Part shown: positions 7,639 through 20,119 of the stretch, piece by piece | Numbering within the stretch: position 1 is the stretch's first letter | How the letters are laid out: the number at the start of each line of letters is the position of its first letter | Origin: an uncultured Chloroflexia bacterium | GTDB taxonomy: Bacteria; Chloroflexota; Limnocylindria; Limnocylindrales; CSP1-4 | Reading direction: 5' to 3' | Assembly (NCBI GenBank): GCA_963768655.1 | Contig: CAVYIM010000003.1 | Location: 672,001 to 736,000 of the forward strand | DNA length: 64,000 nt | The notes under the pieces: generated by a model | What the model was told of the DNA's origin: nothing | The model's database searches: none | Seen by the model: the letters and a program-made list of their open reading frames with translations, nothing else | Program-made: the position numbers and the translations under genes

Positions 7639-9012
7639 ATGCCGGGAGATCGTCGACTGATCGATCGACTCTCGTCGGGCTCCTCGCGTCGCCGGATCCG
7701 GCTGGCTGGCGTTCTCCTCGTTGCGGCCTCGATCGCGGGTTGCCAGGCGGTGCCCGGTCAGCCAGTTGCGACCCCGCTGCAGACGGGCACGACCGGTCCC
7801 ACGGCGACCGCCGCGGAGACGACCGGGCCGGTGGCGACCGCGACGGAGATGACCGCGCCGACGGATACTCCTGTCGAGACCGACACGTCCGGTCCGACGG
7901 CGAGCCCGCTTCCCACGGCCGCCGGGCGCGTGCTTGTCTGGCATTCCGTCTCGCTGCCGGCGAAGCTCGCGGCAACCTCCGACTCGCCCTTCCAGAACGC
8001 GGTCTTCGGCTGGAGCCGCGGGTACCTGGTATTCCACGAGAACGTCGACACCGGCTCGGCCGTTCCGTGGACCTCGACCGATGGACGCCAGTGGCAGCCG
8101 GGCCGGTCACTCGACATGTCCGGGGTCAGTCAGGGAGCCCAGGTCGAGGAAGTTGTCGAGGGGCCGGCCGGACTGCTCGCCCTCGGTCGCGCTCCGGGCT
8201 GCGCCGACGACGGAACCGGCTGCATGCCCGAGCCCGCGACCGCGCTCTGGACCTCCGCCGATGGAGCAAGCTGGAGCCGGGTCGACCTGAGCAAAGCCTT
8301 TGGCGGAGCGGCGGTCGGTGACGTCTCGGGCGGGCCGAAGGGTTACATGGCGGTCAGCAGATCCAGCGACAGCAGCACGGACAGCCCGGCGGTCTGGCTG
8401 TCGGCCGATGGGCAGACCTGGCAAGCTCTCTCCCTCTCGTCCGATACGTTCGCGGATGCTTACCTGGCGCGGGGCACGGTCCTCGCGGATGGCTTCCTGG
8501 TAGCAGGTCGGATCGGCAGCCTGGAGGGTTGGGGCGGCGGCGACTTCCCCACGACTACGCCCGCGATCTGGTGGTCGGCGGATGGCTCCGACTGGAGCCG
8601 CGTGACGCTGCCCGATGTCGCGACGACTCCGGAGGCGGAGGCCGCGATCACCGCGATTGCCACCGGCAAGCTCGTCGCCCACGTCGTCAGCTGGGACTGC
8701 TCGTGCCCGCCAGAGGGCGACGATCAGGCCTGGACCTCGAGCGACGGACAAACCTGGAAAGCGGCCATGGAGCAGTTCCCGTCTCCGGCCGTGGTGCTCT
8801 CCGATGGCCACGAGGCGTTGCAGCTCGTGCCCTCGGACGGAGGCCTGACGGTGGCCGTCTCCTCGGATGGGTTCGAGTGGGCGGAGGTCGCCGTCTCGGG
8901 TTCGGGACCGGCCGATCTGTCCGACGCAGCGTACGGTCCGGCCGGCCTTCTCGTCGAAGACTCGAGCGGGAACCTGTGGCTGGCCGCGATCAGCGGGGCC
9001 GGCGCCGGCTGA
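7639..9012 (+). CDS. Hypothetical lipoprotein with repeated W-x-S-x-DG-x-x-W (BNR/Asp-box-like) motifs
   Basis: Lipobox IAGC, Thr/Pro linker, about six WTSxDGxxW-like repeats; GGAGGG RBS before ATG 7639. Confidence 0.75.
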   Translation: MPGDRRLIDRLSSGSSRRRIRLAGVLLVAASIAGCQAVPGQPVATPLQTGTTGPTATAAETTGPVATATEMTAPTDTPVETDTSGPTASPLPTAAGRVLVWHSVSLPAKLAATSDSPFQNAVFGWSRGYLVFHENVDTGSAVPWTSTDGRQWQPGRSLDMSGVSQGAQVEEVVEGPAGLLALGRAPGCADDGTGCMPEPATALWTSADGASWSRVDLSKAFGGAAVGDVSGGPKGYMAVSRSSDSSTDSPAVWLSADGQTWQALSLSSDTFADAYLARGTVLADGFLVAGRIGSLEGWGGGDFPTTTPAIWWSADGSDWSRVTLPDVATTPEAEAAITAIATGKLVAHVVSWDCSCPPEGDDQAWTSSDGQTWKAAMEQFPSPAVVLSDGHEALQLVPSDGGLTVAVSSDGFEWAEVAVSGSGPADLSDAAYGPAGLLVEDSSGNLWLAAISGAGAG

Positions 9013-9248: not shown

Positions 9249-10571
9249 ATGACCCCCGAGAAACGACCACTCCGCGTCGCGATCCTCGGCGTGGGCACCG
9301 TCGGCGCGGAAGTGGCGCGTGGCTTCCTTCGCAACAGCGATCGGCAGATCGGGCCCGCGGGCGGGCGAATGCTCGAGCTCGTGGCCATCGCCGACATGAA
9401 CGTCCAGGGGGCCGTCGATCGTGGGATGCCACGCGAGTTGATCGCGCCCGATGCCGCGGCCGTGGTCCGGCGCGACGACGTGGACGTGATCGTGGAGCTG
9501 CTGGGCGGCGACGAGCCGGCCCGCTCGCTGATCCTCGGGGCGCTGAGCGCGGGCAAGCCGGTAGTCACGGCCAACAAGCACGTCCTGGCCTACCACGGCG
9601 CGGAGCTGGAGATGGCCGCCCGCGCCGGCGGCGCGCCGCTCCGCTATGAGGCGTCGGTTTGCGGCGGCACGCCGGTGCTCGATCCGATCGCCCGGGATCT
9701 GGCGGCCAACCATGTGCGGCGCGTCCGCGGCATCGTCAACGGCAGCACCAACTTCATCCTGACGCAGATGACGCAGGCCAAGCGGAGCTACGAGGAGGTT
9801 CTCGCCGCCGCCCAGGCCCAGGGCTACGTCGAGCGCGATCCCAGCGCTGACGTCGAGGGCCACGACGCCGCGAACAAGCTGGCCGTCCTGACTCGCCTCT
9901 GCTTCGGGGCGTGGCCGCGGATCGACTCTATCGTCGCCAGTCCGCCCTCCGTGCGCGGCGACGGCAGGCCGGGGATCACCGGCGTCTCGGCCAACGACAT
10001 CGCCGGCGCCGTGGCGTTGGGCCTCGCCATCCGGCTCGTGGCCACGGCCAGCACCCCGGGAACTGCCGAGCCCGGCTTCGGGCTGGCGGGCTCGGTCATG
10101 ACCTCGGCCGTGCCGCTGGGAGCGCCGCTCGGTCGCACCGACGGCGTCCTCAACCGCCTCGAAGTCGATGCCGACCCGGTCGGCCGCGTCTCGTTCGAAG
10201 GTCCCGGCGCCGGCGGCCCCGCCACCAGCAGCGCTGTCCTCGCCGATCTGCTCGAGGTGGCCCGGACCGGCCTCAGCACCTGGGCGGACCTGCCGCCCGC
10301 GGCCCCCGAACTGGTCACCTTCGCCGACGACCGCGCCACCATCCGCCGGCCGTGGTTCGTGTGCGTCCCCGGCGTGCTCCCGGACGAGGTTCCGGGACGG
10401 CTCGCCGAGGAAGTGGCCGGCCCGCCGCCGAGCGCCGTGCCCCGCCATCGAAGCCGCACCTGGGTCGCCGTCCAGACAAGGCCGCTGCCGCTGGCCGACG
10501 TCCGCGACGCGATCGAGCCGCTCATCGCCCCCGACCGCGACATTCCCATCTATCCGATCCTGACCTCGTAG
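9249..10571 (+). CDS. hom: Homoserine dehydrogenase
   Basis: ILGVGTVG, VVTANK, YEASVCGGTP, GIVNGSTNFIL, DVEGHDAANK, GPGAGG; ATG at 9249. Confidence 0.93.
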   Translation: MTPEKRPLRVAILGVGTVGAEVARGFLRNSDRQIGPAGGRMLELVAIADMNVQGAVDRGMPRELIAPDAAAVVRRDDVDVIVELLGGDEPARSLILGALSAGKPVVTANKHVLAYHGAELEMAARAGGAPLRYEASVCGGTPVLDPIARDLAANHVRRVRGIVNGSTNFILTQMTQAKRSYEEVLAAAQAQGYVERDPSADVEGHDAANKLAVLTRLCFGAWPRIDSIVASPPSVRGDGRPGITGVSANDIAGAVALGLAIRLVATASTPGTAEPGFGLAGSVMTSAVPLGAPLGRTDGVLNRLEVDADPVGRVSFEGPGAGGPATSSAVLADLLEVARTGLSTWADLPPAAPELVTFADDRATIRRPWFVCVPGVLPDEVPGRLAEEVAGPPPSAVPRHRSRTWVAVQTRPLPLADVRDAIEPLIAPDRDIPIYPILTS

Positions 10572-10587: not shown

Positions 10588-11727
10588 ATGTCCGCCTCGC
10601 CCGCCCATCCGCCCATCGCCCCGGCCGCCGGCTCCTCGCCCGCGCCCGCCCGTCCCGGCGCCGCTCGTCCGCGCCTGGTCGAGCGCTACCGCGAGTTCCT
10701 GCCGATCACGGCCGCCACTCCCATCATCAGCCTCGGCGAGGGCCTCACGCCGCTGGTCCGGATCGACCACATCGGCAAGCGCATCGGCATCCCGAACCTC
10801 TACGTGAAGTACGAGGGCATGAACCCGACCGGCTCGTTCAAGGACCGGGGCATGGTCGTGGCCATCTCTAAGGCGCTCGAGGAGGGCGCGAAGGCGGTCA
10901 TCTGCGCTTCCACCGGCAACACCTCGGCCTCCTCCGCCGCCTATGGCGCCGCTGCCGGCCTGGAAGTCATCGTCGTCCTGCCGAAGGGCAAGATCGCCCT
11001 TGGCAAGCTCATCCAGGCGCTTGCGGCCGGCGCGAAGATCATCGCCGTCGACGGCAACTTCGATGAGGCTCTGACCGTCGTGCGCGAGATGGCCGAGCAA
11101 AAGGACCATCCGGTCACGCTGGTCAACTCGGTCAACCCGTACCGCATCGACGGTCAGACAACGGCTGCGTTCGAAGTCTGCGACGACCTGGGCCGTGCCC
11201 CCGACATCCTGGCCATCCCGGTGGGCAACGCCGGCAACATCACCGCCTACTGGGCCGGGTTCACGCGCTACCTGGGTGCGGGGCGGATCGGCGCCCGACC
11301 GAAGATGTACGGCTTCCAGGCGGCCGGCGCGGCGCCGATCGTGCTCGGCCATCCCGTGGAGCACCCCGAGACGATTGCCACTGCCATTCGCATCGGCAAT
11401 CCGGCTTCGTGGAAGCAGGCGGTGGCGGCGCGCGACGAGTCGGGCGGGCTCATCGAGACGGTCACGGACGACGAGATCGTGGCCGCGTACCGGGACCTCG
11501 CCACACACCAGGGGATCTTCTGCGAGCCCGCTTCGGCGGCGAGCCTGGCGGGCGTTTGCAAGCTCGCCGCGGCGGGGCGGATCGACCGCGATGCCACGGT
11601 GGTCTGCGTGCTGACCGGCCACGGCCTCAAGGATCCCGAGACGGCCGAACGCACCGCCGGCGGCGCCGGCGCGATTATCGATGCCGCGCCGACTACGGCA
11701 GGAGTGATGCGCGCCCTCGGCTGGTAG
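10588..11727 (+). CDS. thrC: Threonine synthase
   Basis: NPTGSFKDRGM (PLP lysine), ASTGNTSAS, PVGNAGN, TGHGLKDP. Confidence 0.95.
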   Translation: MSASPAHPPIAPAAGSSPAPARPGAARPRLVERYREFLPITAATPIISLGEGLTPLVRIDHIGKRIGIPNLYVKYEGMNPTGSFKDRGMVVAISKALEEGAKAVICASTGNTSASSAAYGAAAGLEVIVVLPKGKIALGKLIQALAAGAKIIAVDGNFDEALTVVREMAEQKDHPVTLVNSVNPYRIDGQTTAAFEVCDDLGRAPDILAIPVGNAGNITAYWAGFTRYLGAGRIGARPKMYGFQAAGAAPIVLGHPVEHPETIATAIRIGNPASWKQAVAARDESGGLIETVTDDEIVAAYRDLATHQGIFCEPASAASLAGVCKLAAAGRIDRDATVVCVLTGHGLKDPETAERTAGGAGAIIDAAPTTAGVMRALGW

Positions 11728-11782
11728 GTGCGCCGAGTCGCGCTCTGGCGCCAGGACACTGGCCCATGCCGGGGTCGCCCCG

Positions 11783-12190
11783 CTAGGTCGCCAGGCGCGC
11801 GTCGGGGTCCGGCTGGAGCCAGTATGGCGAGTGGCTCTCGCACCAATCGCGGGATCGAGGGCCGAGGTTGGGGACAACGAGTGGATGACCAGCCGGTGTG
11901 GTCGGCAGCACGTTCTCCAGGAAGCACGTGACCACGCTGTCACGTAGCGACGGCGTGGCGGTCTCCAGCAGACTGTCCACGAACAGGAGCGCGGCTTTGA
12001 TCGACGCCTCGTCTGCTGCTGCGACCATTCGCTCGAAGGCCCAGCTGAAGGCCGCGAGCGCGCCGCACGTGGTCCCCTTACCCGGCTCTGCGTTGAAGAG
12101 CTCGACATCCTGGTCATACGCCGACCGACCGGCTTCCGGGACTAAGGCCCTCAGGCGGCGGGCGAGTTCCGGCCCACTTGGCTCGGTCAC
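11783..12190 (-). CDS. Hypothetical protein
   Basis: 135-aa ORF with protein-like composition (…VVTCFLENV…); no function recognised. Confidence 0.55.
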   Translation of the reverse strand: MTEPSGPELARRLRALVPEAGRSAYDQDVELFNAEPGKGTTCGALAAFSWAFERMVAAADEASIKAALLFVDSLLETATPSLRDSVVTCFLENVLPTTPAGHPLVVPNLGPRSRDWCESHSPYWLQPDPDARLAT

Positions 12191-12354
12191 ATCCCCGGTT
12201 CCTCACTCGCGACTAGCCCGACTGTGATCATGGCAGATCTACTGGATCGCTGCCGGGTGCGCCCAACCCGGTCCGTATCTAGTGACATTGGCGAACACTC
12301 GCCGACGACGGCCTGATCTCGCCGGGAACCCTGGATGCGCGCGGGAGAATCAAG

Positions 12355-12440
12355 GCAGCGACGGGGAGCTCTGACACGCGGCCCAAACACTGGCCGCTGG
12401 GACCGCGCCGAGCCACTGGCGGAACCGACGCGTCGCCGAC
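12355..12440 (+). ncRNA. Cyclic di-GMP class II riboswitch
   Basis: P1 GCGACG/CGTCGC; GGGAGC..TGAC and CGAG kink-turn motifs; stem CGCGGCCC/GGGACCGCG; pseudoknot CCGC/GCGG; terminal AACCGAC. Colinear with the c-di-GMP-II aptamer as recalled; lies just upstream of ATG 12464. Confidence 0.8.
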
Positions 12441-12463
12441 GCATTCCAAGGGGGAGAAGAGCG

Positions 12464-13381
12464 ATGCGCACGGGTCGTCGCGCCGACCGACTGGTTGTCA
12501 GTCTGGCTCTTGCCCTGGTAGTGGGCGGGTGCGGGGGGAGCGCCGCGACTCCATCACCTGGGCCAGGGCACCTCTACTGGGCCAACCGTGGCTACGATCT
12601 CCCTACCAACCCCGAGACGACGATGGGGCGAGCCAACATCGACGGGACCGGGGTGAGCCAGAGATTCATCACGGCCGGGCACAGCATGTTCGGCCTGGCG
12701 ATCCTCGGCGATCACCTCTACTGGACCGACACGGGAACGAACTCGATCGGGCGGGCGAACCTTGACGGCACGGGGGTGAATCAGAGCTTCATCAGCGCCA
12801 GCGGCTTCGGGATAACGGGGGACGGAACCTACCTCTACTGGGCAGACCCCGCGAGCCAGTTGATCGGGCGGGCGAACCTTGACGGCACCGGGGTGAACCA
12901 GAGCTTCATCTTCGCCGGCGGTCAACCTGTCTCTGTCGCGGTCAGCGGCCGCTACATCTACTGGACCGACTACTCTTCCGACAAGAGAATTGGGCGGGCC
13001 AGCCTCGACGGCACGGGCGTGAACCAGAGCTTCATCGACTGCAGCGCCAGTCCCGGCGACAGCACGCCTTTCGCCATCACGATCAGCGGCGGCTACATCT
13101 ACTGGACCAACTACGTCTGGAAGGTCAACGCTGGCGGCACGATCGGGAGGGCCAAGCTGGACGGGACTGGGGCGAACCAGACCTTCATCGGCGACGACCT
13201 CGCCGACTTCAACCCCGGCTGGATCGCGATCGCCGGAGGCTACATGTATTGGAGCGAACCCGGCGACGCACTCAGCCCCGGCAAGGGCACGATCGAGCGG
13301 GCCAAGCTGGACGGGACGGAGCTGACGCGAAACTTCATCGCCGGTGCGTTCACCCCTATCGGCTTGGTGGTAGGCCCATAG
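12464..13381 (+). CDS. Lipoprotein with YWTD (LDL-receptor class B-like) beta-propeller repeats
   Basis: Lipobox VGGC; six repeats of YW(T/A)x...IGRAxLDGTGVNQSFI. Confidence 0.8.
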   Translation: MRTGRRADRLVVSLALALVVGGCGGSAATPSPGPGHLYWANRGYDLPTNPETTMGRANIDGTGVSQRFITAGHSMFGLAILGDHLYWTDTGTNSIGRANLDGTGVNQSFISASGFGITGDGTYLYWADPASQLIGRANLDGTGVNQSFIFAGGQPVSVAVSGRYIYWTDYSSDKRIGRASLDGTGVNQSFIDCSASPGDSTPFAITISGGYIYWTNYVWKVNAGGTIGRAKLDGTGANQTFIGDDLADFNPGWIAIAGGYMYWSEPGDALSPGKGTIERAKLDGTELTRNFIAGAFTPIGLVVGP

Positions 13382-13578
13382 GGGCCCCGAGCCTTCGCGG
13401 TCGGCCACGCAATTGACGGGCTCCGCTGTCGAGTGTGCGTGGTGCCCGTCGTCTCGCGGCGGCCCTCTTACGTCTGCGACCCTGGCGCGGATCGCGGGGA
13501 TCGGGCCGGGCCGCCAGGCTCGGGTGGACTTCGTGGACACCGTCGCAGACAGCCGTCTTCTTCCCACAGCCATTCCCT

Positions 13579-14740
<1,162 letters not shown>

Positions 14741-14964
14741 CTACCTCTGTCGCGACAAGGCAACCACGATCCGTCGCGTAGCGTCGTGAGTCAAGCCGAC
14801 CAGCCAGGCCCGACGTCCGCTGGGTGCATTGGCGCACACTCGCCCAAGCGGCGGTGACTTCCTCCGGTGTTGACGACCTCCGGCACTTGCCGCTAGCCGT
14901 CAGGCACGGCGACGCTGGCAGCTCGGCCGGAGGCCGGTTGGCGAACAGGTTGGCGGTGCTACAA

Positions 14965-15336
14965 ATGTTGTTGAGAGGCGGAATCGTCAGGGGGATCGCG
15001 TGCGCCCTGGCGCTCACGGCAGTGCTCGGCTGCACGCCCCGATCCGCGCTCCAGTTCTCGCCCACGACCCTGACCGACGCCCAGGTCGGCTCACCATACG
15101 CCGCCACCATCACCGTGAATCAGGCCGCGACGCCCGTGGATGGCGCCGCGGTCCAGGACGGCGCGCTCCCGGCTGGCCTCGACCTCACATTGGCCAAGGA
15201 GCCCATCAACACGATCCAGATTTCGGGAACGCCCACCGCCGCCGGCACGTTCAGTTTCACCGTCTACGTGTGGTGCTATGGCACGCAGGTCAGCGGGCAG
15301 ACCGCAACCCAGGAGTACACGCTGGTGGTGAAGTGA
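14965..15336 (+). CDS. Small lipoprotein with a putative Ig (He_PIG-like) domain
   Basis: VLGC lipobox; GALPAGL...ISGTPTAAGTFSFTV pattern. Confidence 0.7.
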   Translation: MLLRGGIVRGIACALALTAVLGCTPRSALQFSPTTLTDAQVGSPYAATITVNQAATPVDGAAVQDGALPAGLDLTLAKEPINTIQISGTPTAAGTFSFTVYVWCYGTQVSGQTATQEYTLVVK

Positions 15337-15349
15337 ACCAGTGGAAGTC

Positions 15350-15374
15350 TGGTCGGGGCGAGAGGATTTGAACC
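15350..15374 (-). mobile_element. tRNA-Pro 3'-end fragment (att-like), copy 1
   Basis: Minus strand GGTTCAAATCCTCTCGCCCCGACCA = T-loop, 3' T-stem, acceptor strand and CCA typical of tRNA-Pro. Confidence 0.75.
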
Positions 15375-15561
15375 AGCGGTTCCCAAGTGCCGGATCGTCG
15401 CGCCGGGCTGGATCGTGGAATCCCTGGCACTGGCGGCTTGAGCAAGACTCCTGGCAGCGACCAGGGGTCCGAGACTCATCGATCCGGTCCGGCGCCCGCG
15501 CCGACTACGACGTTCCGGAGTCGAGCTTGCCGAGCCGACCTCGTGGGCGTAAGCTTTACCC

Positions 15562-15813
15562 ATGAGTGCGCGAGTAAAGACCAGTCGACGTCGAGGGTAC
15601 ACCAGGGTGAGCGCCAAGAATCAGGTCACGATCCCCCAGGACGCCCTAGTTCGGGCTGGGCTCAAAGTGGGCGATCGCCTCCGGGCCGAGGCCGGCCGAC
15701 CAGGTGAGTTGATCCTGGTCCGTGAGGAGGATCCTGTCGATCGATTTGCCGGTGCCTTGACGGGCGCCTTTGCTCCAGATCACCTCGACGAACTGCGCCG
15801 CGAATGGCGCTGA
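15562..15813 (+). CDS. AbrB/MazE-type antitoxin (VapB-like)
   Basis: VSAKNQVTIP...AGLKVGD swapped-hairpin motif; overlaps the downstream PIN gene. Confidence 0.85.
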   Translation: MSARVKTSRRRGYTRVSAKNQVTIPQDALVRAGLKVGDRLRAEAGRPGELILVREEDPVDRFAGALTGAFAPDHLDELRREWR

Positions 15814-16223
15814 CGATCCTGGACGCCGGCGTCATCATCGCGATTCTCGATTCGAGCGATGCCCACCATGCGGCAGCCAGGGAGGCCCTGACGCGCGCTC
15901 GGAGTCGGGGAGAGGAGTTGGCCGTCCCCGCCTCCGCCTACGCCGAAGTACTCGTCGGGCCATTCCGGCAGGGTGCGAGCGCGGTTGCAAAGGTCGATGA
16001 GTTTCTCGCAGCTCTTCCGGCTCGAGTTGAGCCGGCCACTCGGGAGATTGCTGCAACCGCGGCGAGGTTGAGGGCCCAGCACGGAACCAAGTTGCGGCTG
16101 CCAGATGCGCTGGTCGTAGCCACTGCGGTTGAACTGGGTGCCACCCTCCTGCTGACGACAGGCGCCGGATGGCCATCCGTGCCGATCGAGGTCACCATCG
16201 TTGCAGGATCGGCCACACCCTGA
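15804..16223 (+). CDS. PIN-domain toxin (VapC-like)
   Basis: ILDAGV, YAEV, LRLPDALVVATA; the fourth acidic position reads TTG. Confidence 0.85.
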   Translation: MALTILDAGVIIAILDSSDAHHAAAREALTRARSRGEELAVPASAYAEVLVGPFRQGASAVAKVDEFLAALPARVEPATREIAATAARLRAQHGTKLRLPDALVVATAVELGATLLLTTGAGWPSVPIEVTIVAGSATP

Positions 16224-16250
16224 CGCGAGGATGCCGGCGATCACTGCCCG

Positions 16251-16267
16251 GGTAGGTTGCACCTACC
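16251..16267. terminator. Perfect hairpin GGTAGGT-TGC-ACCTACC
   Basis: 7-bp stem between vapC and tRNA fragment copy 2. Confidence 0.45.
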
Positions 16268-16271
16268 TAAT

Positions 16272-16293
16272 TGGTCGGCGCGAGAGGACTTGA
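16272..16293 (-). mobile_element. tRNA-Pro 3'-end fragment (att-like), copy 2
   Basis: Minus strand TCAAGTCCTCTCGCGCCGACCA; 20/22 identical to copy 1. Confidence 0.7.
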
Positions 16294-16349
16294 GGCCGAG
16301 ATAACAAGTGAAGTGTCGGCTGTTCCCGCCGGTCCGCCGCAGGGGCCAC

Positions 16350-16445
16350 CCACGCGATCAAGACGCCATCGGGTCGCAGGGTTGCCGTCTGCTCAGTTCG
16401 GGCAGTCTTCATCGACCCGATCGGGTGAAGGCCACTCACTGAGTA
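16350..16445 (-). pseudogene. Degenerate isolated Kelch repeat
   Basis: SGLHPIGSMKTARTEQTATLRPDGVLIA mirrors the last repeat of the adjacent gene (SGFHQIGSMTTARDLQTATLLPDGRVLIA). Confidence 0.55.
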
Positions 16446-16465
16446 GTAGCGCGGACCGCAGCCGA

Positions 16466-17752
16466 TCACGGCACGAACAACTCCGCGGACGATAGGGCAT
16501 GGAACTCGTCCGAGGTGCCGCCGGCTATCAACACCCTGCCATCGGGCAGAAGGGTCGCCGTCTGAAGGTCCCGAGCCGTTGTCATTGAGCCGATCTGGTG
16601 GAAGCCGCTGGCGGGGTCATAGATGCCGGCTTGGGCGGTGGCGGCGTCATTCCATTCACCGCCGGCAAACAGCACATCTCCGTCCGAAAGGAGCGTCGCT
16701 GTCGCCGCGAACCACAGCTCCGGCGGGGAGATGGACCCGGCGGCCGTGAACGAGCCATTGGACGGGTCATAGATCTCCAGGTAGTCGAAGATACACAGGA
16801 GGACGCGGCCGTCCTTGAGGGTCGTTGGTGGCGCCGTCAGATCGTAGTCCCTGGGCGCCACGGTTGCGCTCGCTGGGAGCTGGAGTGTGAGGCTCCTGGA
16901 TTTGCCACTCGCGGGATCGTAGATCTCAGCGCGTGGACCCCCGACCTGTGTTGAACCCACGAACAGAACCTTGCCGTCAGGCAGCAGGGCCTCGCCCAGA
17001 TGCTCGTAGGAGCGCAGCAGCGAGCCGGGACGCGAGAACTTGCCGGTGGCGGGGTCGTAGGTCTCAAGAACCGCGTTGTCTGACTCTGCGGTCAACACGC
17101 TGCCGTCGGGCAGGACTATGGCCGTGTCCGGAACGCTGGCGATGACTGAGCCGACTCGCGTAAATCTGCCGGTCGTCGGGTCGTAGATATCAGAAGAACT
17201 GCCCGAGATCGGCAAAGGAGCCTGGTACGGCGTCGTGCAGCCGCCGGTGCCAGTGTCATCGCCTGCGACGACGAGGACTCGGCCGTCCTGCAGAAGTGTC
17301 GCCACCGCCCAACCACGAGGAATGGTCAGCGCGCCGGTCGTCGTGAACGTGCCGGTCTTGGGGTCGTACAGCTCCGCGGACGCCAGTCCGCCGGAGGGCT
17401 GACACGGCATTCCCCCGGCAATGAGCACTTTGCCGTTCGTGAGCAGCGTCGCCGTGGCATAGAGGCGAGCCACCTGCAGGCTGCCAGTCGGGACGAAGTG
17501 CGGCGCGGACGTCGGCGACGGTGCGAGCGAAGGCGTGGCCGAAGGAGCGGCCGAAGGCGTGGCCGAAGGTGGCACCGTCTTACTGGGTCGAACACTCGGG
17601 CTTGCTGCAGAGCTACCGCAGCCGGCCAGAACGGCCACGAATACCAACCCGGCGAATACCCGCCCTGTCGAGCGGTGGACCCTGCGGACACCAGGACCGG
17701 CTCCCACGCCCCATCTCCCTCTGTGTAATCCACCAACGGCAGGATGACGCAT
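16466..17752 (-). CDS. Kelch-repeat lipoprotein
   Basis: Lipobox LAGC, PS/PT linker, repeated ATLLxDGxVLxAGG...AELYDP; true start probably near 17680. Confidence 0.85.
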   Translation of the reverse strand: MRHPAVGGLHRGRWGVGAGPGVRRVHRSTGRVFAGLVFVAVLAGCGSSAASPSVRPSKTVPPSATPSAAPSATPSLAPSPTSAPHFVPTGSLQVARLYATATLLTNGKVLIAGGMPCQPSGGLASAELYDPKTGTFTTTGALTIPRGWAVATLLQDGRVLVVAGDDTGTGGCTTPYQAPLPISGSSSDIYDPTTGRFTRVGSVIASVPDTAIVLPDGSVLTAESDNAVLETYDPATGKFSRPGSLLRSYEHLGEALLPDGKVLFVGSTQVGGPRAEIYDPASGKSRSLTLQLPASATVAPRDYDLTAPPTTLKDGRVLLCIFDYLEIYDPSNGSFTAAGSISPPELWFAATATLLSDGDVLFAGGEWNDAATAQAGIYDPASGFHQIGSMTTARDLQTATLLPDGRVLIAGGTSDEFHALSSAELFVP

Positions 17753-17805
17753 CTACGAAGCTCGCGTGACGCCACGGAGGGCCGTGGCCGACCGGGAAGA
17801 AGAGG

Positions 17806-17830
17806 TGGTGGGGGCGAGCGGATTAGAGCC
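17806..17830 (-). mobile_element. tRNA-Pro-like 3'-end fragment (att-like), copy 3, degenerate
   Basis: Minus strand GGCTCTAATCCGCTCGCCCCCACCA; 21/25 identical to copy 1; followed on the minus strand by hairpin GCCACGG/CCGTGGC (17771-17788). Confidence 0.55.
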
Positions 17831-18029
17831 GACACTATCCGAGCGATCATCCGAGGCCCGATGGAGTTGGCGGCCCAGTTGGTCGGCTAGCGTTTTGGAT
17901 GTCCTTCGCCCGCCTGAGCCGCTCTTCCGGGCAGTCATCGCCGTCTGCGTCGACGCTCCGGGCGCAATACGTCGGAGACTGGAGGCTCCGCGAAGAGCCG
18001 CGGGCTTCTCTCTTTGGCGAGGAACGGAT

Positions 18030-18632
18030 CTAGCTGAAGTCGAAGGGCGGGTACGGGACGGGCAGGAACAGCATGTAGCCGCTGATCCGGGTCCCGTAGT
18101 TCAGGACGACGCCCATGAACTTTGCCCCCAGCTCGGGGTAGCGTCCGTTGATCAGGATGGGGATCCAGACGAGCAGGACGTAGACATACATCCCGACGTA
18201 CAGGACGCCGAGCACGATGAAGTGGGGGATCAGGGCGATGATGCGGGCGCAGAACCCGATCAGCGGGATGCCCCACAGGCGGTTGATGGATCGGCCCTCG
18301 GCGTTGACCTGGACCTGGACCGGACCCTGGCCGCCGACGTTCAGATCTGGATAGCCACCGGGTACCAGGAGTCCGTAGGCGTTGATCCTGGCATTGCGGT
18401 TCAAGGACGCGCCCACCAGCTTCTGGTACCAGTCCGGGACCTTGCCGAGAAGGAGGATCGGGATCCACAAGATGACCTGGCTGAGGACCACGAGGAAGCC
18501 GATCACCATGAGGACGATGAGCCCGGGGATCAGGAGAATGGCCCGGACCACAATGCCGAACCAGAGGAGGCCCCACCAACGATCGATCGCTCGCTCTTGG
18601 GGCATAGCGACAGAGATGGGATAGTCAGCCAC
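18030..18632 (-). CDS. DUF4389-like membrane protein
   Basis: Two internal repeats R..L.IP..IVL...WIPIL..G..P...R...Y...YP. Confidence 0.8.
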   Translation of the reverse strand: MADYPISVAMPQERAIDRWWGLLWFGIVVRAILLIPGLIVLMVIGFLVVLSQVILWIPILLLGKVPDWYQKLVGASLNRNARINAYGLLVPGGYPDLNVGGQGPVQVQVNAEGRSINRLWGIPLIGFCARIIALIPHFIVLGVLYVGMYVYVLLVWIPILINGRYPELGAKFMGVVLNYGTRISGYMLFLPVPYPPFDFS

Positions 18633-18718
18633 GGCAGACCTCCGAGGGCTCCGAGTCCGATCCAGCAGAGCTTTCCTACCAGTGAGACTTTAGCAGCGAG
18701 AAAAGGTTCACCCGGCCA

Positions 18719-19231
18719 TCAGCCGTTGGAGCTTGCGACCGCAGCGGTCGTGCCCAACGCCACGCCAGTCGTCCTGTCGGCCGGGCTGTGCGGCTGAACG
18801 ATCAGCCTGTCCGACGCGACCGCGAGAAGCGCGAGCAGGACGACATCGATGGCCAGCCCCATCACTGAGCCGGGCAGTCCGATCGTGCAGAGAACAAGAG
18901 AGCCCAGGAGCAGGGCGATAGTCGTTCGACGGGCCCAAGGGTGGCCGCGCCAGAGCATCACCCCGACTACCACGAAGGCGACCGCGGCGGCCAGCCACAC
19001 GAAGCCGAGTATCTTGACGGCCGTGCCGCCGACGTCGATCGAACCATTGAGGATCCGGGTCGAGAACTCGACTCCTCTAAAGCCACGATGCCACCATGGA
19101 ACGGTGAAGCCGTATACGTGGACCAGGCCGTGAAGAGCCAGGAACACGGCGAACACGCGGGGCAGGAGCCCAGCATGCCAGGCCCCTGTCTCTCGGTACT
19201 CCGTGGCGGGCGCGGGGAGTGGCGTGGTCAT
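18719..19231 (-). CDS. Hypothetical membrane protein
   Basis: Four hydrophobic segments with an HGLVH motif; GGAGGA RBS. Confidence 0.7.
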   Translation of the reverse strand: MTTPLPAPATEYRETGAWHAGLLPRVFAVFLALHGLVHVYGFTVPWWHRGFRGVEFSTRILNGSIDVGGTAVKILGFVWLAAAVAFVVVGVMLWRGHPWARRTTIALLLGSLVLCTIGLPGSVMGLAIDVVLLALLAVASDRLIVQPHSPADRTTGVALGTTAAVASSNG

Positions 19232-19320
19232 CTCGTCCTCCTTGCGATGGCGTTCCCGTTGTCCGCCCGGTCGGCCAGGAGCGGAACGCCAACCTCACGC
19301 CCGGAGCCTGGCGATCGCTT

Positions 19321-19359
19321 GTGTAGGAACCGTGTAGGCGCGGTAAGCCCCAGGTAAGC
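19321..19359. promoter_or_regulatory. Paired direct repeats with 11-bp period (GTGTAGG x2, GGTAAGC x2), response-regulator-like site
   Basis: Copies at 19321/19332 and 19342/19353, upstream of the 19231 gene. Confidence 0.45.
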
Positions 19360-19442
19360 GGCCCTCGCCGGTCTCGCTCCGGCCCCACGTTGCAAGCCGT
19401 GCTCGGCCGGCGCTTCGGCCGGGCGGACGATTGACTCCACGT

Positions 19443-19470
19443 TGCGTCGCCCGTCTTGAGGGGCGACGCA
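19443..19470. terminator. Stem-loop downstream of thrH
   Basis: TGCGTCGCCC...GGGCGACGCA 10-bp stem. Confidence 0.5.
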
Positions 19471-19513
19471 GTTCACGAGCCGACGCGGGCAGCGTCTGGA
19501 ACTGAGATCGCCT

Positions 19514-20119
19514 CTACGCCATCGCCTGCCTGATCAGCCCCATCAGATCGGCGTAGGTCTCGACGGCAGGGAACTGGGGGAATTGCCGTTTCACACCGTC
19601 GGGCGCGCGGAAGAGGATGCCCTTGTCGGCCTCGCCGAGCATGGCCGTGTCGTTGAAGGAATCGCCCCCGGCGATGACGTGGTAATTCATCCGTCTGAAC
19701 GCCGCGACGGCCTCGCGCTTCTGCTCTCGGATGCGCAACTGATAGTCGACGATGTGGTCGTTTTCGACGATCAGCCGGTGACACAGGAGTGTCGGCCAGT
19801 TGAGCTGACGGAGCAGGGGAGCGGCGAACTGCTCGAAAGTGTCGGACAGGATCACGACCTGGACGAACGAACGCAACTCGTCGAGGAACTCCCTCGCGCC
19901 GGCCAGGGGCGTCAAGGTACCGATGACGCCCTGGATGTCTGACAGCTTCAGCCCGTGCTCGTCCAGGATGGCCAGGCGTCCGCGCATGAGCTTGTCGTAG
20001 TCCGGCTCATCGCGCGTGGTGCGGCGCAGCTCGGGGATGCCCGTCTTCTCGGACACGGCAATCCAGATCTCAGGCGTCAGCACGCCTTCCATGTCCAGCG
20101 TGACGATCGATTGCTTCAT
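19514..20119 (-). CDS. thrH: Phosphoserine phosphatase / homoserine phosphotransferase
   Basis: HAD motif DMEGVLTPEIW, TTRDEPDYD, LSDTF, GDSFNDTAML. Confidence 0.93.
   Translation of the reverse strand: MKQSIVTLDMEGVLTPEIWIAVSEKTGIPELRRTTRDEPDYDKLMRGRLAILDEHGLKLSDIQGVIGTLTPLAGAREFLDELRSFVQVVILSDTFEQFAAPLLRQLNWPTLLCHRLIVENDHIVDYQLRIREQKREAVAAFRRMNYHVIAGGDSFNDTAMLGEADKGILFRAPDGVKRQFPQFPAVETYADLMGLIRQAMA

Follow-up and report, generated by a model that had tools for sequence, protein, structure and literature searches.

Three tRNA-Pro 3′-end fragments in an uncultured Chloroflexia genome as probable attachment-core copies of large serine recombinase elements

Three short tRNA-like fragments lie in a 64,000-nt stretch of DNA from an uncultured Chloroflexia bacterium (contig CAVYIM010000003.1, here C3, positions 672001 to 736000; below, "the window" is this whole stretch, and coordinates without a contig name count from its first letter). 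We propose that they are copies of the attachment (att) core of integrative elements that encode large serine recombinases (LSRs) and target the T-arm and acceptor 3′ end of tRNA-Pro(CGG), and that they persist as scars and hybrid junctions of serial integration and reshuffling, a reading to which we assign a probability of roughly 0.75. The host lineage of these elements is related to Candidatus Limnocylindrales (Chloroflexota). Scars of serial integrations were one of two inferences in a first-pass annotation of this DNA and are the better fit of the two, in the form of LSR cores within an accretion array.

A repeat search of the window revealed a 25-nt direct repeat in three copies (15350-15374, 16272-16296 and 17806-17830) with identities of 100/84/84% and spacings of 922 and 1534 nt. 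The minus strand of each copy reads as the 3′ end of a tRNA, comprising the T-loop, the 3′ strand of the T-stem, the 3′ strand of the acceptor and ACCA. A profile built from many copies of the repeat recovered the three fragments in a genome-wide search with E values of 1.9e-7, 2.2e-5 and 0.051 and gave exactly three sites in the window, with no fourth copy there. The fragments occupy intergenic spacers, antisense to vapBC and to a He_PIG gene and sense to a Kelch-repeat lipoprotein gene; repeat search and Pfam thus agree with the first-pass description of three co-oriented minus-strand fragments around vapBC and the Kelch gene.

The assembly (9 contigs, 88.6% complete) contains tRNA-Pro(UGG) and tRNA-Pro(GGG). 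Genuine tRNA-Pro(CGG) genes were found by ARAGORN in relatives of the same genus, where the last 25 nt are GGTTCAAATCCTCTCGCCCCGACCA. Fragment 1 matches this genus CGG end at 25/25 positions (own UGG, 21/25; own GGG, 19/25), fragment 2 at 21/25 (UGG, 17/25; GGG, 15/25) and fragment 3 at 21/25 (UGG, 19/25; GGG, 17/25). Because the genus CGG end is the best match in each case, sequence comparison places the origin of the fragments in the 3′ end of tRNA-Pro(CGG), not UGG. The earlier identification of the fragments as attachment-site copies from a tRNA-Pro 3′ end therefore stands, carried by the perfect match of fragment 1 to the relatives' CGG gene, and its choice of UGG as the isoacceptor gives way to CGG. 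Elsewhere on C3, ARAGORN reports a "tRNA-Pro(cgg)" at 247196-247264 of the contig that is without T-loop consensus and looks false, and the program finds no tmRNA gene in the whole assembly.

The intergenic position of the fragments, the hairpins that follow some copies and the mimicry of a T-arm and acceptor 3′ strand could also suggest a functional RNA or regulatory element, such as a tRNA-like processing or termination signal, or a decayed tRNA gene in the case of fragment 1. We find this scarcely credible. As the first-pass annotation had noted, there is no intact tRNA: ARAGORN finds none in the 64-kb window, and Rfam gives no tRNA match between 14500 and 18500 even at E ≤ 10, only three sub-threshold unrelated matches. 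Neither a 5′ acceptor strand nor a T-stem partner was found for the fragments, their orientation to the neighboring genes is inconsistent, and the flank of fragment 1 varies as a coding sequence of the opposite strand. The suggestion that copy 1 is a decayed tRNA-Pro(UGG) fails on these negative searches and on the codon-periodic variation of the stretch, a 30-codon recombinase tail described below; a cloverleaf for a fragment 1 gene or pseudogene is without support, only its last 25 nt matching a tRNA. We also discarded the reverse-strand GAGAGGA as a ribosome-binding leader, its distance to start codons being inconsistent.

The repeat is not confined to these three copies. Its 17-nt core, TCCTCTCGCCCCGACCA, has 19 matches in the genome at up to 2 mismatches, versus 0-3 for eight shuffled cores, an excess over chance, and pairwise similarity among copies with their flanks ends exactly at ..GACCA in almost every case. 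At up to 1 mismatch the core occurs in 50/51 genomes of the genus, with 1-27 copies each (reversed-pattern control, 0-1). It was found in 93/151 genomes sampled across the class, reaches 12 copies in other genera of the same family, and occurs in 1/49 genomes of one family; three genomes that are marked as unpublished (G138, G147, G172) contribute to the figures for class and family. The core is thus a genus-wide repeat, not three local copies. Co-oriented arrays of cores are present in G015, G006, G042, G016 and G010; in G015 seven cores spaced 0.7-8 kb apart come after the tRNA, and G006 and G042 have six (on one contig) and eight cores, respectively. Right after the genuine tRNA-Pro(CGG) of G015 (locus L060, G015:C10, 4754-6517) lie two open reading frames (ORFs) of 181 and 363 amino acids with no Pfam match, in the place that an LSR gene occupies in other genomes.

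Every core, read antisense, gives (N)TG GTC GGG GCG AGA GG., that is, MVGARG. At nine loci, frames of 482-530 codons enter the core, all in the same frame, and therefore the attachment site lies within the recombinase ORF. Pfam assigns Resolvase to seven of these nine frames, most of which also match Recombinase; one matches Recombinase only and one has no match. LSR genes adjoin the genuine tRNA-Pro(CGG) in G001, G010 and G051, and the frame adjoining it in G017 has a Recombinase domain only. We identified 15 close homologues of this genome's C3 LSR in named genomes (metagenome-assembled genomes (MAGs) titled Candidatus Limnocylindrales, uncultured Chloroflexia or Chloroflexi, and one Sulfotelmatobacter). 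All 15 end at the core, with the junction GACCA|TAACAACC (15/15), and 4/15 adjoin a true tRNA-Pro(CGG). Among public protein clusters matching the C-terminal region of the LSR, 47/48 contain [MLV]VGARG; in these clusters, one conserved LSR body (..AWNGARLVV) precedes at least 8 classes of tail, with 7 tRNA-antisense tails among them. The recombinase ORF thus has the att core within its 3′ end, and the sequence upstream of the core determines the enzyme's tail. The genome has five LSR genes, all outside the window. This design is not universal, as the C9 LSR located by tRNA-Arg stops 70 nt before the tRNA.

The first-pass annotation had attributed the fragments to tyrosine integrases and had remarked that no integrase lies nearby. 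The second point holds: there is no match to a tyrosine integrase or to the Recombinase domain of serine recombinases within C3:672001-736000. The first does not, as every recombinase found adjoining a core is an LSR with its ORF running through the core, in frame, and no tyrosine integrase stands at any core. Phage-type integrases, for example those encoded by pSAM2-like elements, might still have left the fragments behind as displaced tRNA 3′ ends. Transfer RNA 3′ ends are classic targets of tyrosine integrases, the genome encodes about 9 tyrosine recombinases, its RepSA elements are bounded by tRNA-Lys, tRNA-Leu and tRNA-Arg repeats, and pSAM2 itself uses tRNA-Pro. Yet none of the roughly nine genes adjoins a Pro-type core, the tyrosine-integrase islands on C3 and C6 have tRNA-Lys and tRNA-Leu repeats as boundaries instead, and the repeats show the ~50-bp arm symmetry of LSR sites, with no arm-type repeats seen. 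We regard this origin as very unlikely, and the specific proposal that the core is the att site of RepSA (pSAM2-like) integrases was rejected on the boundaries of those islands.

The islands themselves, three in number, are pSAM2-like and carry RepSA replication initiator genes (C3:510186-526594, C6:182243-189739 and C9:287272-294732); among these genes there is one intact copy, one with a frameshift and one interrupted by two TGA stops. Their bounding repeats match tRNA-Lys (45 nt, perfect), tRNA-Leu (19/20) and tRNA-Arg (18/20). RepSA elements are known from actinomycetes, and the relatives of this genome are Chloroflexota MAGs. A 1.1-kb repeat resembling an insertion sequence (C3:508884-510021) lies immediately upstream of the tRNA-Lys at which the C3 island is anchored and has copies 94-97% identical at C3:130613, C3:871263 and C7:85859.

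The 20-70 nt upstream of the cores sort into arm types with type-conserved tail lengths: 13 amino acids for types D and E, 16 for type F, 30 for type C and 43-44 for type A; type B, with six copies in this genome, has no conserved stop. Among 33 distinct type C copies in relatives, 19 are exactly 30 codons long and 28 fall within 27-33. In type C, codon position 2 has the lowest column entropy and position 3 the highest, and the conserved residues are P..CRIVVP.W. To compare the two sides of the core, we placed a center 2 nt into the 17-mer and scored positions 15-24 on both sides. The outer arms behave as inverted repeats, with 68 arm/start pairs agreeing at 8 or more of 10 positions versus 2 with shuffled starts. 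Two perfect (10/10) pairs covary, GTGATGGGAA/TTCCCATCAC and CATGTGGGAA/TTCCCACATG; type C arms mirror, as inverted repeats, the start of LSR family 3 elements (10/10, with covariation), and type D arms pair likewise with the element start CTTACGGGTGA. By eye, the type B sequence GCTTGTTA pairs as an inverted repeat with an element start, TAACAAGC, that lies 30 nt away in the same geometry. The sites thus span about 50 bp with inverted outer arms about a center that types B and D share, and this layout of arm, core and start is the architecture of serine-integrase attP sites.

The three fragments can be placed within these types. Fragment 1 (15350-15374, minus strand) consists of the att core (15350-15366) and T-loop-like bases. 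Running antisense through it on the plus strand is a 30-codon frame, LVGARGFEPAVPKCRIVAPGWIVESLALAA (15349-15441, stop at 15439-15441), a stretch of type C that is an orphan recombinase tail and also the P-arm of an LSR attP. The first-pass annotation had seen D-loop-like and anticodon-loop-like sequence in this stretch. Fragment 2, on the same strand, extends over 16272-16313, with a core (16272-16288) that has 1 mismatch and a type B arm (..CTTGTTATCTCGGCCTCAAG). Fragment 3 (17806-17850, minus strand) has a decayed core (17806-17822, 2 mismatches) and a type D/F-like arm (GATAGTGTCGGCTCTAA); core and arm together match a type F copy of G006 at 93% over 30 nt.

The LSR gene sits at the edge of its element and runs antisense over the core, its last codons (MVGARG and a tail of 13-44 amino acids) encoded by the att site and the sequence beyond; the core is perfectly conserved and has a sharp boundary at CCA. 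In the mechanism that we propose, insertion at the tRNA or at an earlier core copy would swap the tail and leave the element's own tail and core at the far end. As the exchange is limited to the last 13-44 codons, production of the enzyme probably continues afterwards. Rounds of integration, with subsequent deletion and recombination from core to core, would produce the co-oriented arrays, in which each core would join an upstream arm to an unrelated downstream module. On this view, fragment 1 connects an orphan type C tail with the He_PIG module, fragment 2 connects a type B arm with a hairpin and the vapBC module, and at fragment 3 the Kelch module follows a decayed arm of type D/F. These modules are without a recombinase, and their onward movement would depend on one of the genome's five distant LSR genes.

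Module boundaries in other genomes bear on these junctions. The vapBC module (15513-16271) recurs in relatives at 83-92% identity and lies directly after a core in G016 with a type C arm, in G004 with a type A arm and in the window with a type B arm. He_PIG is found right after a core in G009 (twice), G010 and G015, where the match comprises the 17-mer and the gene only. A module paralogous to the Kelch module lies between cores at C4:531759 and C4:529953 and likewise ends in a type B arm, and a metagenome contig matches the Kelch segment from 16924 to 17836 and then diverges into a different upstream partner. Cores mark module boundaries, with He_PIG, vapBC and Kelch beginning exactly after a core behind varied upstream arms. 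The expectation of the first-pass annotation that breakpoints would coincide with the fragments holds between species and loci, where modules start at cores, and not between strains.

A hairpin, GGTAGGT-TGC-ACCTACC (16251-16267), directly follows the CCA end of fragment 2 and is one instance of a recurrent motif, TTCGAGTAGGTnnnnCCTACCC. The motif directly follows CCA in about 1/4 of core copies, whichever arm lies upstream, and opens many recombinase-less modules (for example, 16249-16271 in the window, and 2630, 7736 and 13490 in locus L056). Hairpins had previously been described after two of the fragments; the one after fragment 2 is confirmed, and fragments 1 and 3 have weaker stems only.

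This common start bears on the other inference of the first-pass annotation, a cassette array mobilized in trans. Here the locus would belong to a recombinase-less gene-cassette system in which distant LSRs excise modules of 1-3 genes and re-insert them at any core, a serine-recombinase counterpart of integron cassettes or ccr-less SCC cassettes. We consider such a system unlikely, for all that it would account for modules that lack a recombinase, start exactly at a core and have upstream partners differing by genome, for the arrays of 6-8 small modules (0.6-4.6 kb) with conserved ends in G006, G015 and G042, and for the start motif TTCGAGTAGGT..CCTACCC common to many modules; the five LSR genes of the genome could supply the activity. 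The second boundary of the modules is not constant, none of the arms forms an inverted repeat with the hairpin start, in contrast to the starts of LSR-bearing elements, and neither a circular nor an empty-site joint was seen in the metagenome contigs examined. Reassortment at cores is equally expected from accretion together with recombination between att copies.

Several of these observations also weigh against our preferred reading of the fragments as att-core copies left by LSR integration. From vapBC to the next core the distance is 0.9 kb here and at least 1.6 kb in G016, and in G004 there is no further core within 1.5 kb. The hairpin start found no cognate arm in the symmetry test, and the idea that it is the native flank of tRNA-Pro(CGG) was rejected, since it is not so in 10 genomes of other genera. 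In the metagenome contigs of four public runs, the best of which contains 0.25 of the sampled words, we detected no clean excision or circle joint; the loose contig ends (15350, 16272 and 16308) for the most part represent further copies of the repeat units and are uninformative on this locus. The LSR gene closest to the window on the same contig is about 170 kb away. A BLAST search with the relatives' tRNA found no full tRNA-Pro(CGG) in the assembly, so the primary attB of the organism is unseen. The symmetry of the arms, and that symmetry only, would put the crossover about 2 nt into the 17-mer (TC|CTCTCG), at the junction of T-loop and T-stem.

The surroundings of the fragments raise a further difficulty. 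All three are contained in a 7.8-kb accessory island (11728-19513) between a thrC-like gene with a PALP domain (10588-11727, plus strand) and a HAD hydrolase gene (19514-20119, minus strand). In six relatives the thrC-like and HAD genes are 57-1438 nt apart with no core between them, and the block is specific to this genome in that comparison. The ends of the island are gene ends, not fragments, so the gain of this interval does not have the breakpoints at the fragments that the first-pass annotation had anticipated. LSR integration leaves the arrival of the block unexplained, because the ends of the island are off the cores and the six relatives are coreless here.

Pfam identifies the genes of the island as DUF7674, an LDL-receptor-B propeller, an aldo/keto reductase, He_PIG (14824-15336, the outer neighbor of fragment 1), vapB of the MazE/AbrB type (15562-15813, plus strand), vapC with a PIN domain (15804-16223, plus strand), the Kelch-repeat lipoprotein gene (16466-17752, minus strand), whose module begins 54 nt after fragment 3, and DUF4389 (18030-18632, the outer neighbor of fragment 3). 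Array modules elsewhere encode Kelch and LDL-receptor-B propellers, ECF sigma factors, regulators of the TetR, WYL and MmyB types, PIN toxins, methyltransferases and aldo/keto reductases; in the arrays of G015 and G006, Pfam detected no recombinase in the ORFs selected for it. Three tandem 1.7-kb Kelch-type copies at C5:43082-47931 are 83-88% identical to the module at C4:530-531 kb, which points to strong expansion of a module-borne family of secreted propellers. At the start of the LDL-receptor-B propeller gene in the window, about 70 nt (12361-12432) have many copies of 81-94% identity in each genus genome searched, probably a leader (signal-peptide or lipoprotein) that the members of a large paralogous family have in common.

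Parts of this arrangement are shared with known systems. In one study, integration of serine recombinases into tRNA genes is called rare, the cases given being eight Mycobacterium elements of the AICE group (integrative and conjugative elements of actinomycetes) that have serine recombinases and lie in one tRNA-Leu gene, and the phage phiRSM1 in tRNA-Ser (Ghinet et al. 2011, PMC3218068). Like other LSR elements and these AICEs, the family described here has a Resolvase and Recombinase enzyme at the edge of the element, found beside the site in the repeat family and not in the window, and short att sites with inverted outer arms. Unlike the LSR AICEs, it has several LSR lineages on one tRNA-Pro(CGG) core, an ORF running through the att site and up to 27 copies. 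The Islander-type arrangement, a tyrosine integrase beside an intact tRNA with a displaced 3′ fragment at the far end, was not observed for the Pro-type cores. The "suicidal" integrases of archaeal SSV-type elements have the att site in their own gene and a tRNA target, and integration separates the parts of the gene; a review describes them as tyrosine recombinases and exclusively archaeal (PMC8371274). Judged against that text, the recombination site within the recombinase's own gene and the tRNA target are shared. The tyrosine enzyme and the split, disabled gene are not, the enzyme here being a bacterial serine recombinase that exchanges a short C-terminal tail.

Tandem accretion is also known, as in the CIME/ICE systems (cis-mobilizable and integrative and conjugative elements) and in composite islands of the staphylococcal cassette chromosome SCCmec, whose site is the 3′ end of a protein gene. 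The tycheposons of Prochlorococcus are, according to a preprint, tandem elements with partial tRNA copies between them and with remnants, and 27/937 have a large serine recombinase (10.1101/2020.12.28.424599). As in that account, serial integration would push older elements along, and decayed, recombinase-less pieces would stay flanked by repeats. Unlike tycheposon, CIME and SCCmec accretion, the modules here are much smaller and more numerous, the arrays lie far from the tRNA, as in the window, and the repeat is part of the recombinase ORF. Integron arrays resemble ours in their co-oriented repeats between promoter-poor modules of few genes and varied function, including toxin-antitoxin pairs. 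They differ in having an IntI-type tyrosine recombinase and attI: we found no tyrosine recombinase in the window or in the Pfam-scanned selected ORFs of the G015 and G006 arrays, and no attI. The repeat here is a tRNA 3′ end with a type-specific arm, and the second end of a module is not fixed as in integron cassettes. Examined by eye, with no attC fold or model applied, the repeats carry no GTTRRRY box. In the open-access literature that we searched, we found neither a description of tRNA-Pro LSRs whose ORF contains the att site nor any account of Limnocylindria mobile elements.

A different part of a tRNA is repeated at another locus of this genome (L012, C4:7212-10364). There the 5′ half of tRNA-Pro(UGG), up to the anticodon loop, occurs twice upstream of the genuine gene (8623-8697, together with 36 nt from upstream of the gene, and 10243-10364), each copy being followed by CGTCAGCCGATAAGCGG. 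The repeats enclose two modules of 1.3-1.6 kb, one with a PadR regulator, and the locus resembles another cassette-like array, in this case based on a tRNA 5′ half.

With these findings, what seemed a local oddity becomes a mechanism of genus-wide reach in an uncultured lineage of soil and peat, in which one tRNA 3′ end is the common docking site for several lineages of serine recombinase. An att site inside a recombinase ORF is described only for archaeal tyrosine integrases in the review PMC8371274. Related LSRs with a common core and covarying arms offer material for the study of arm recognition and for orthogonal integration tools. For annotation, "MVGARG.." recombinase tails and 30-codon frames are to be read as junction products, not as independent genes. 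More tentatively, and as a possibility that we would sooner doubt than expect, Limnocylindria may maintain a serine-recombinase cassette economy, in which LSR lineages that share a core and differ in their arms, with the att site in the ORF and a C-terminal tail that reports the free or integrated state and the neighbor, would shuffle recombinase-less modules of 1-3 genes in trans among dozens of core sites throughout the chromosome. The cargo so shuffled would be toxin-antitoxin pairs, secreted propeller proteins and regulators, and, if true, such an economy would be integron-like yet run by a different enzyme.

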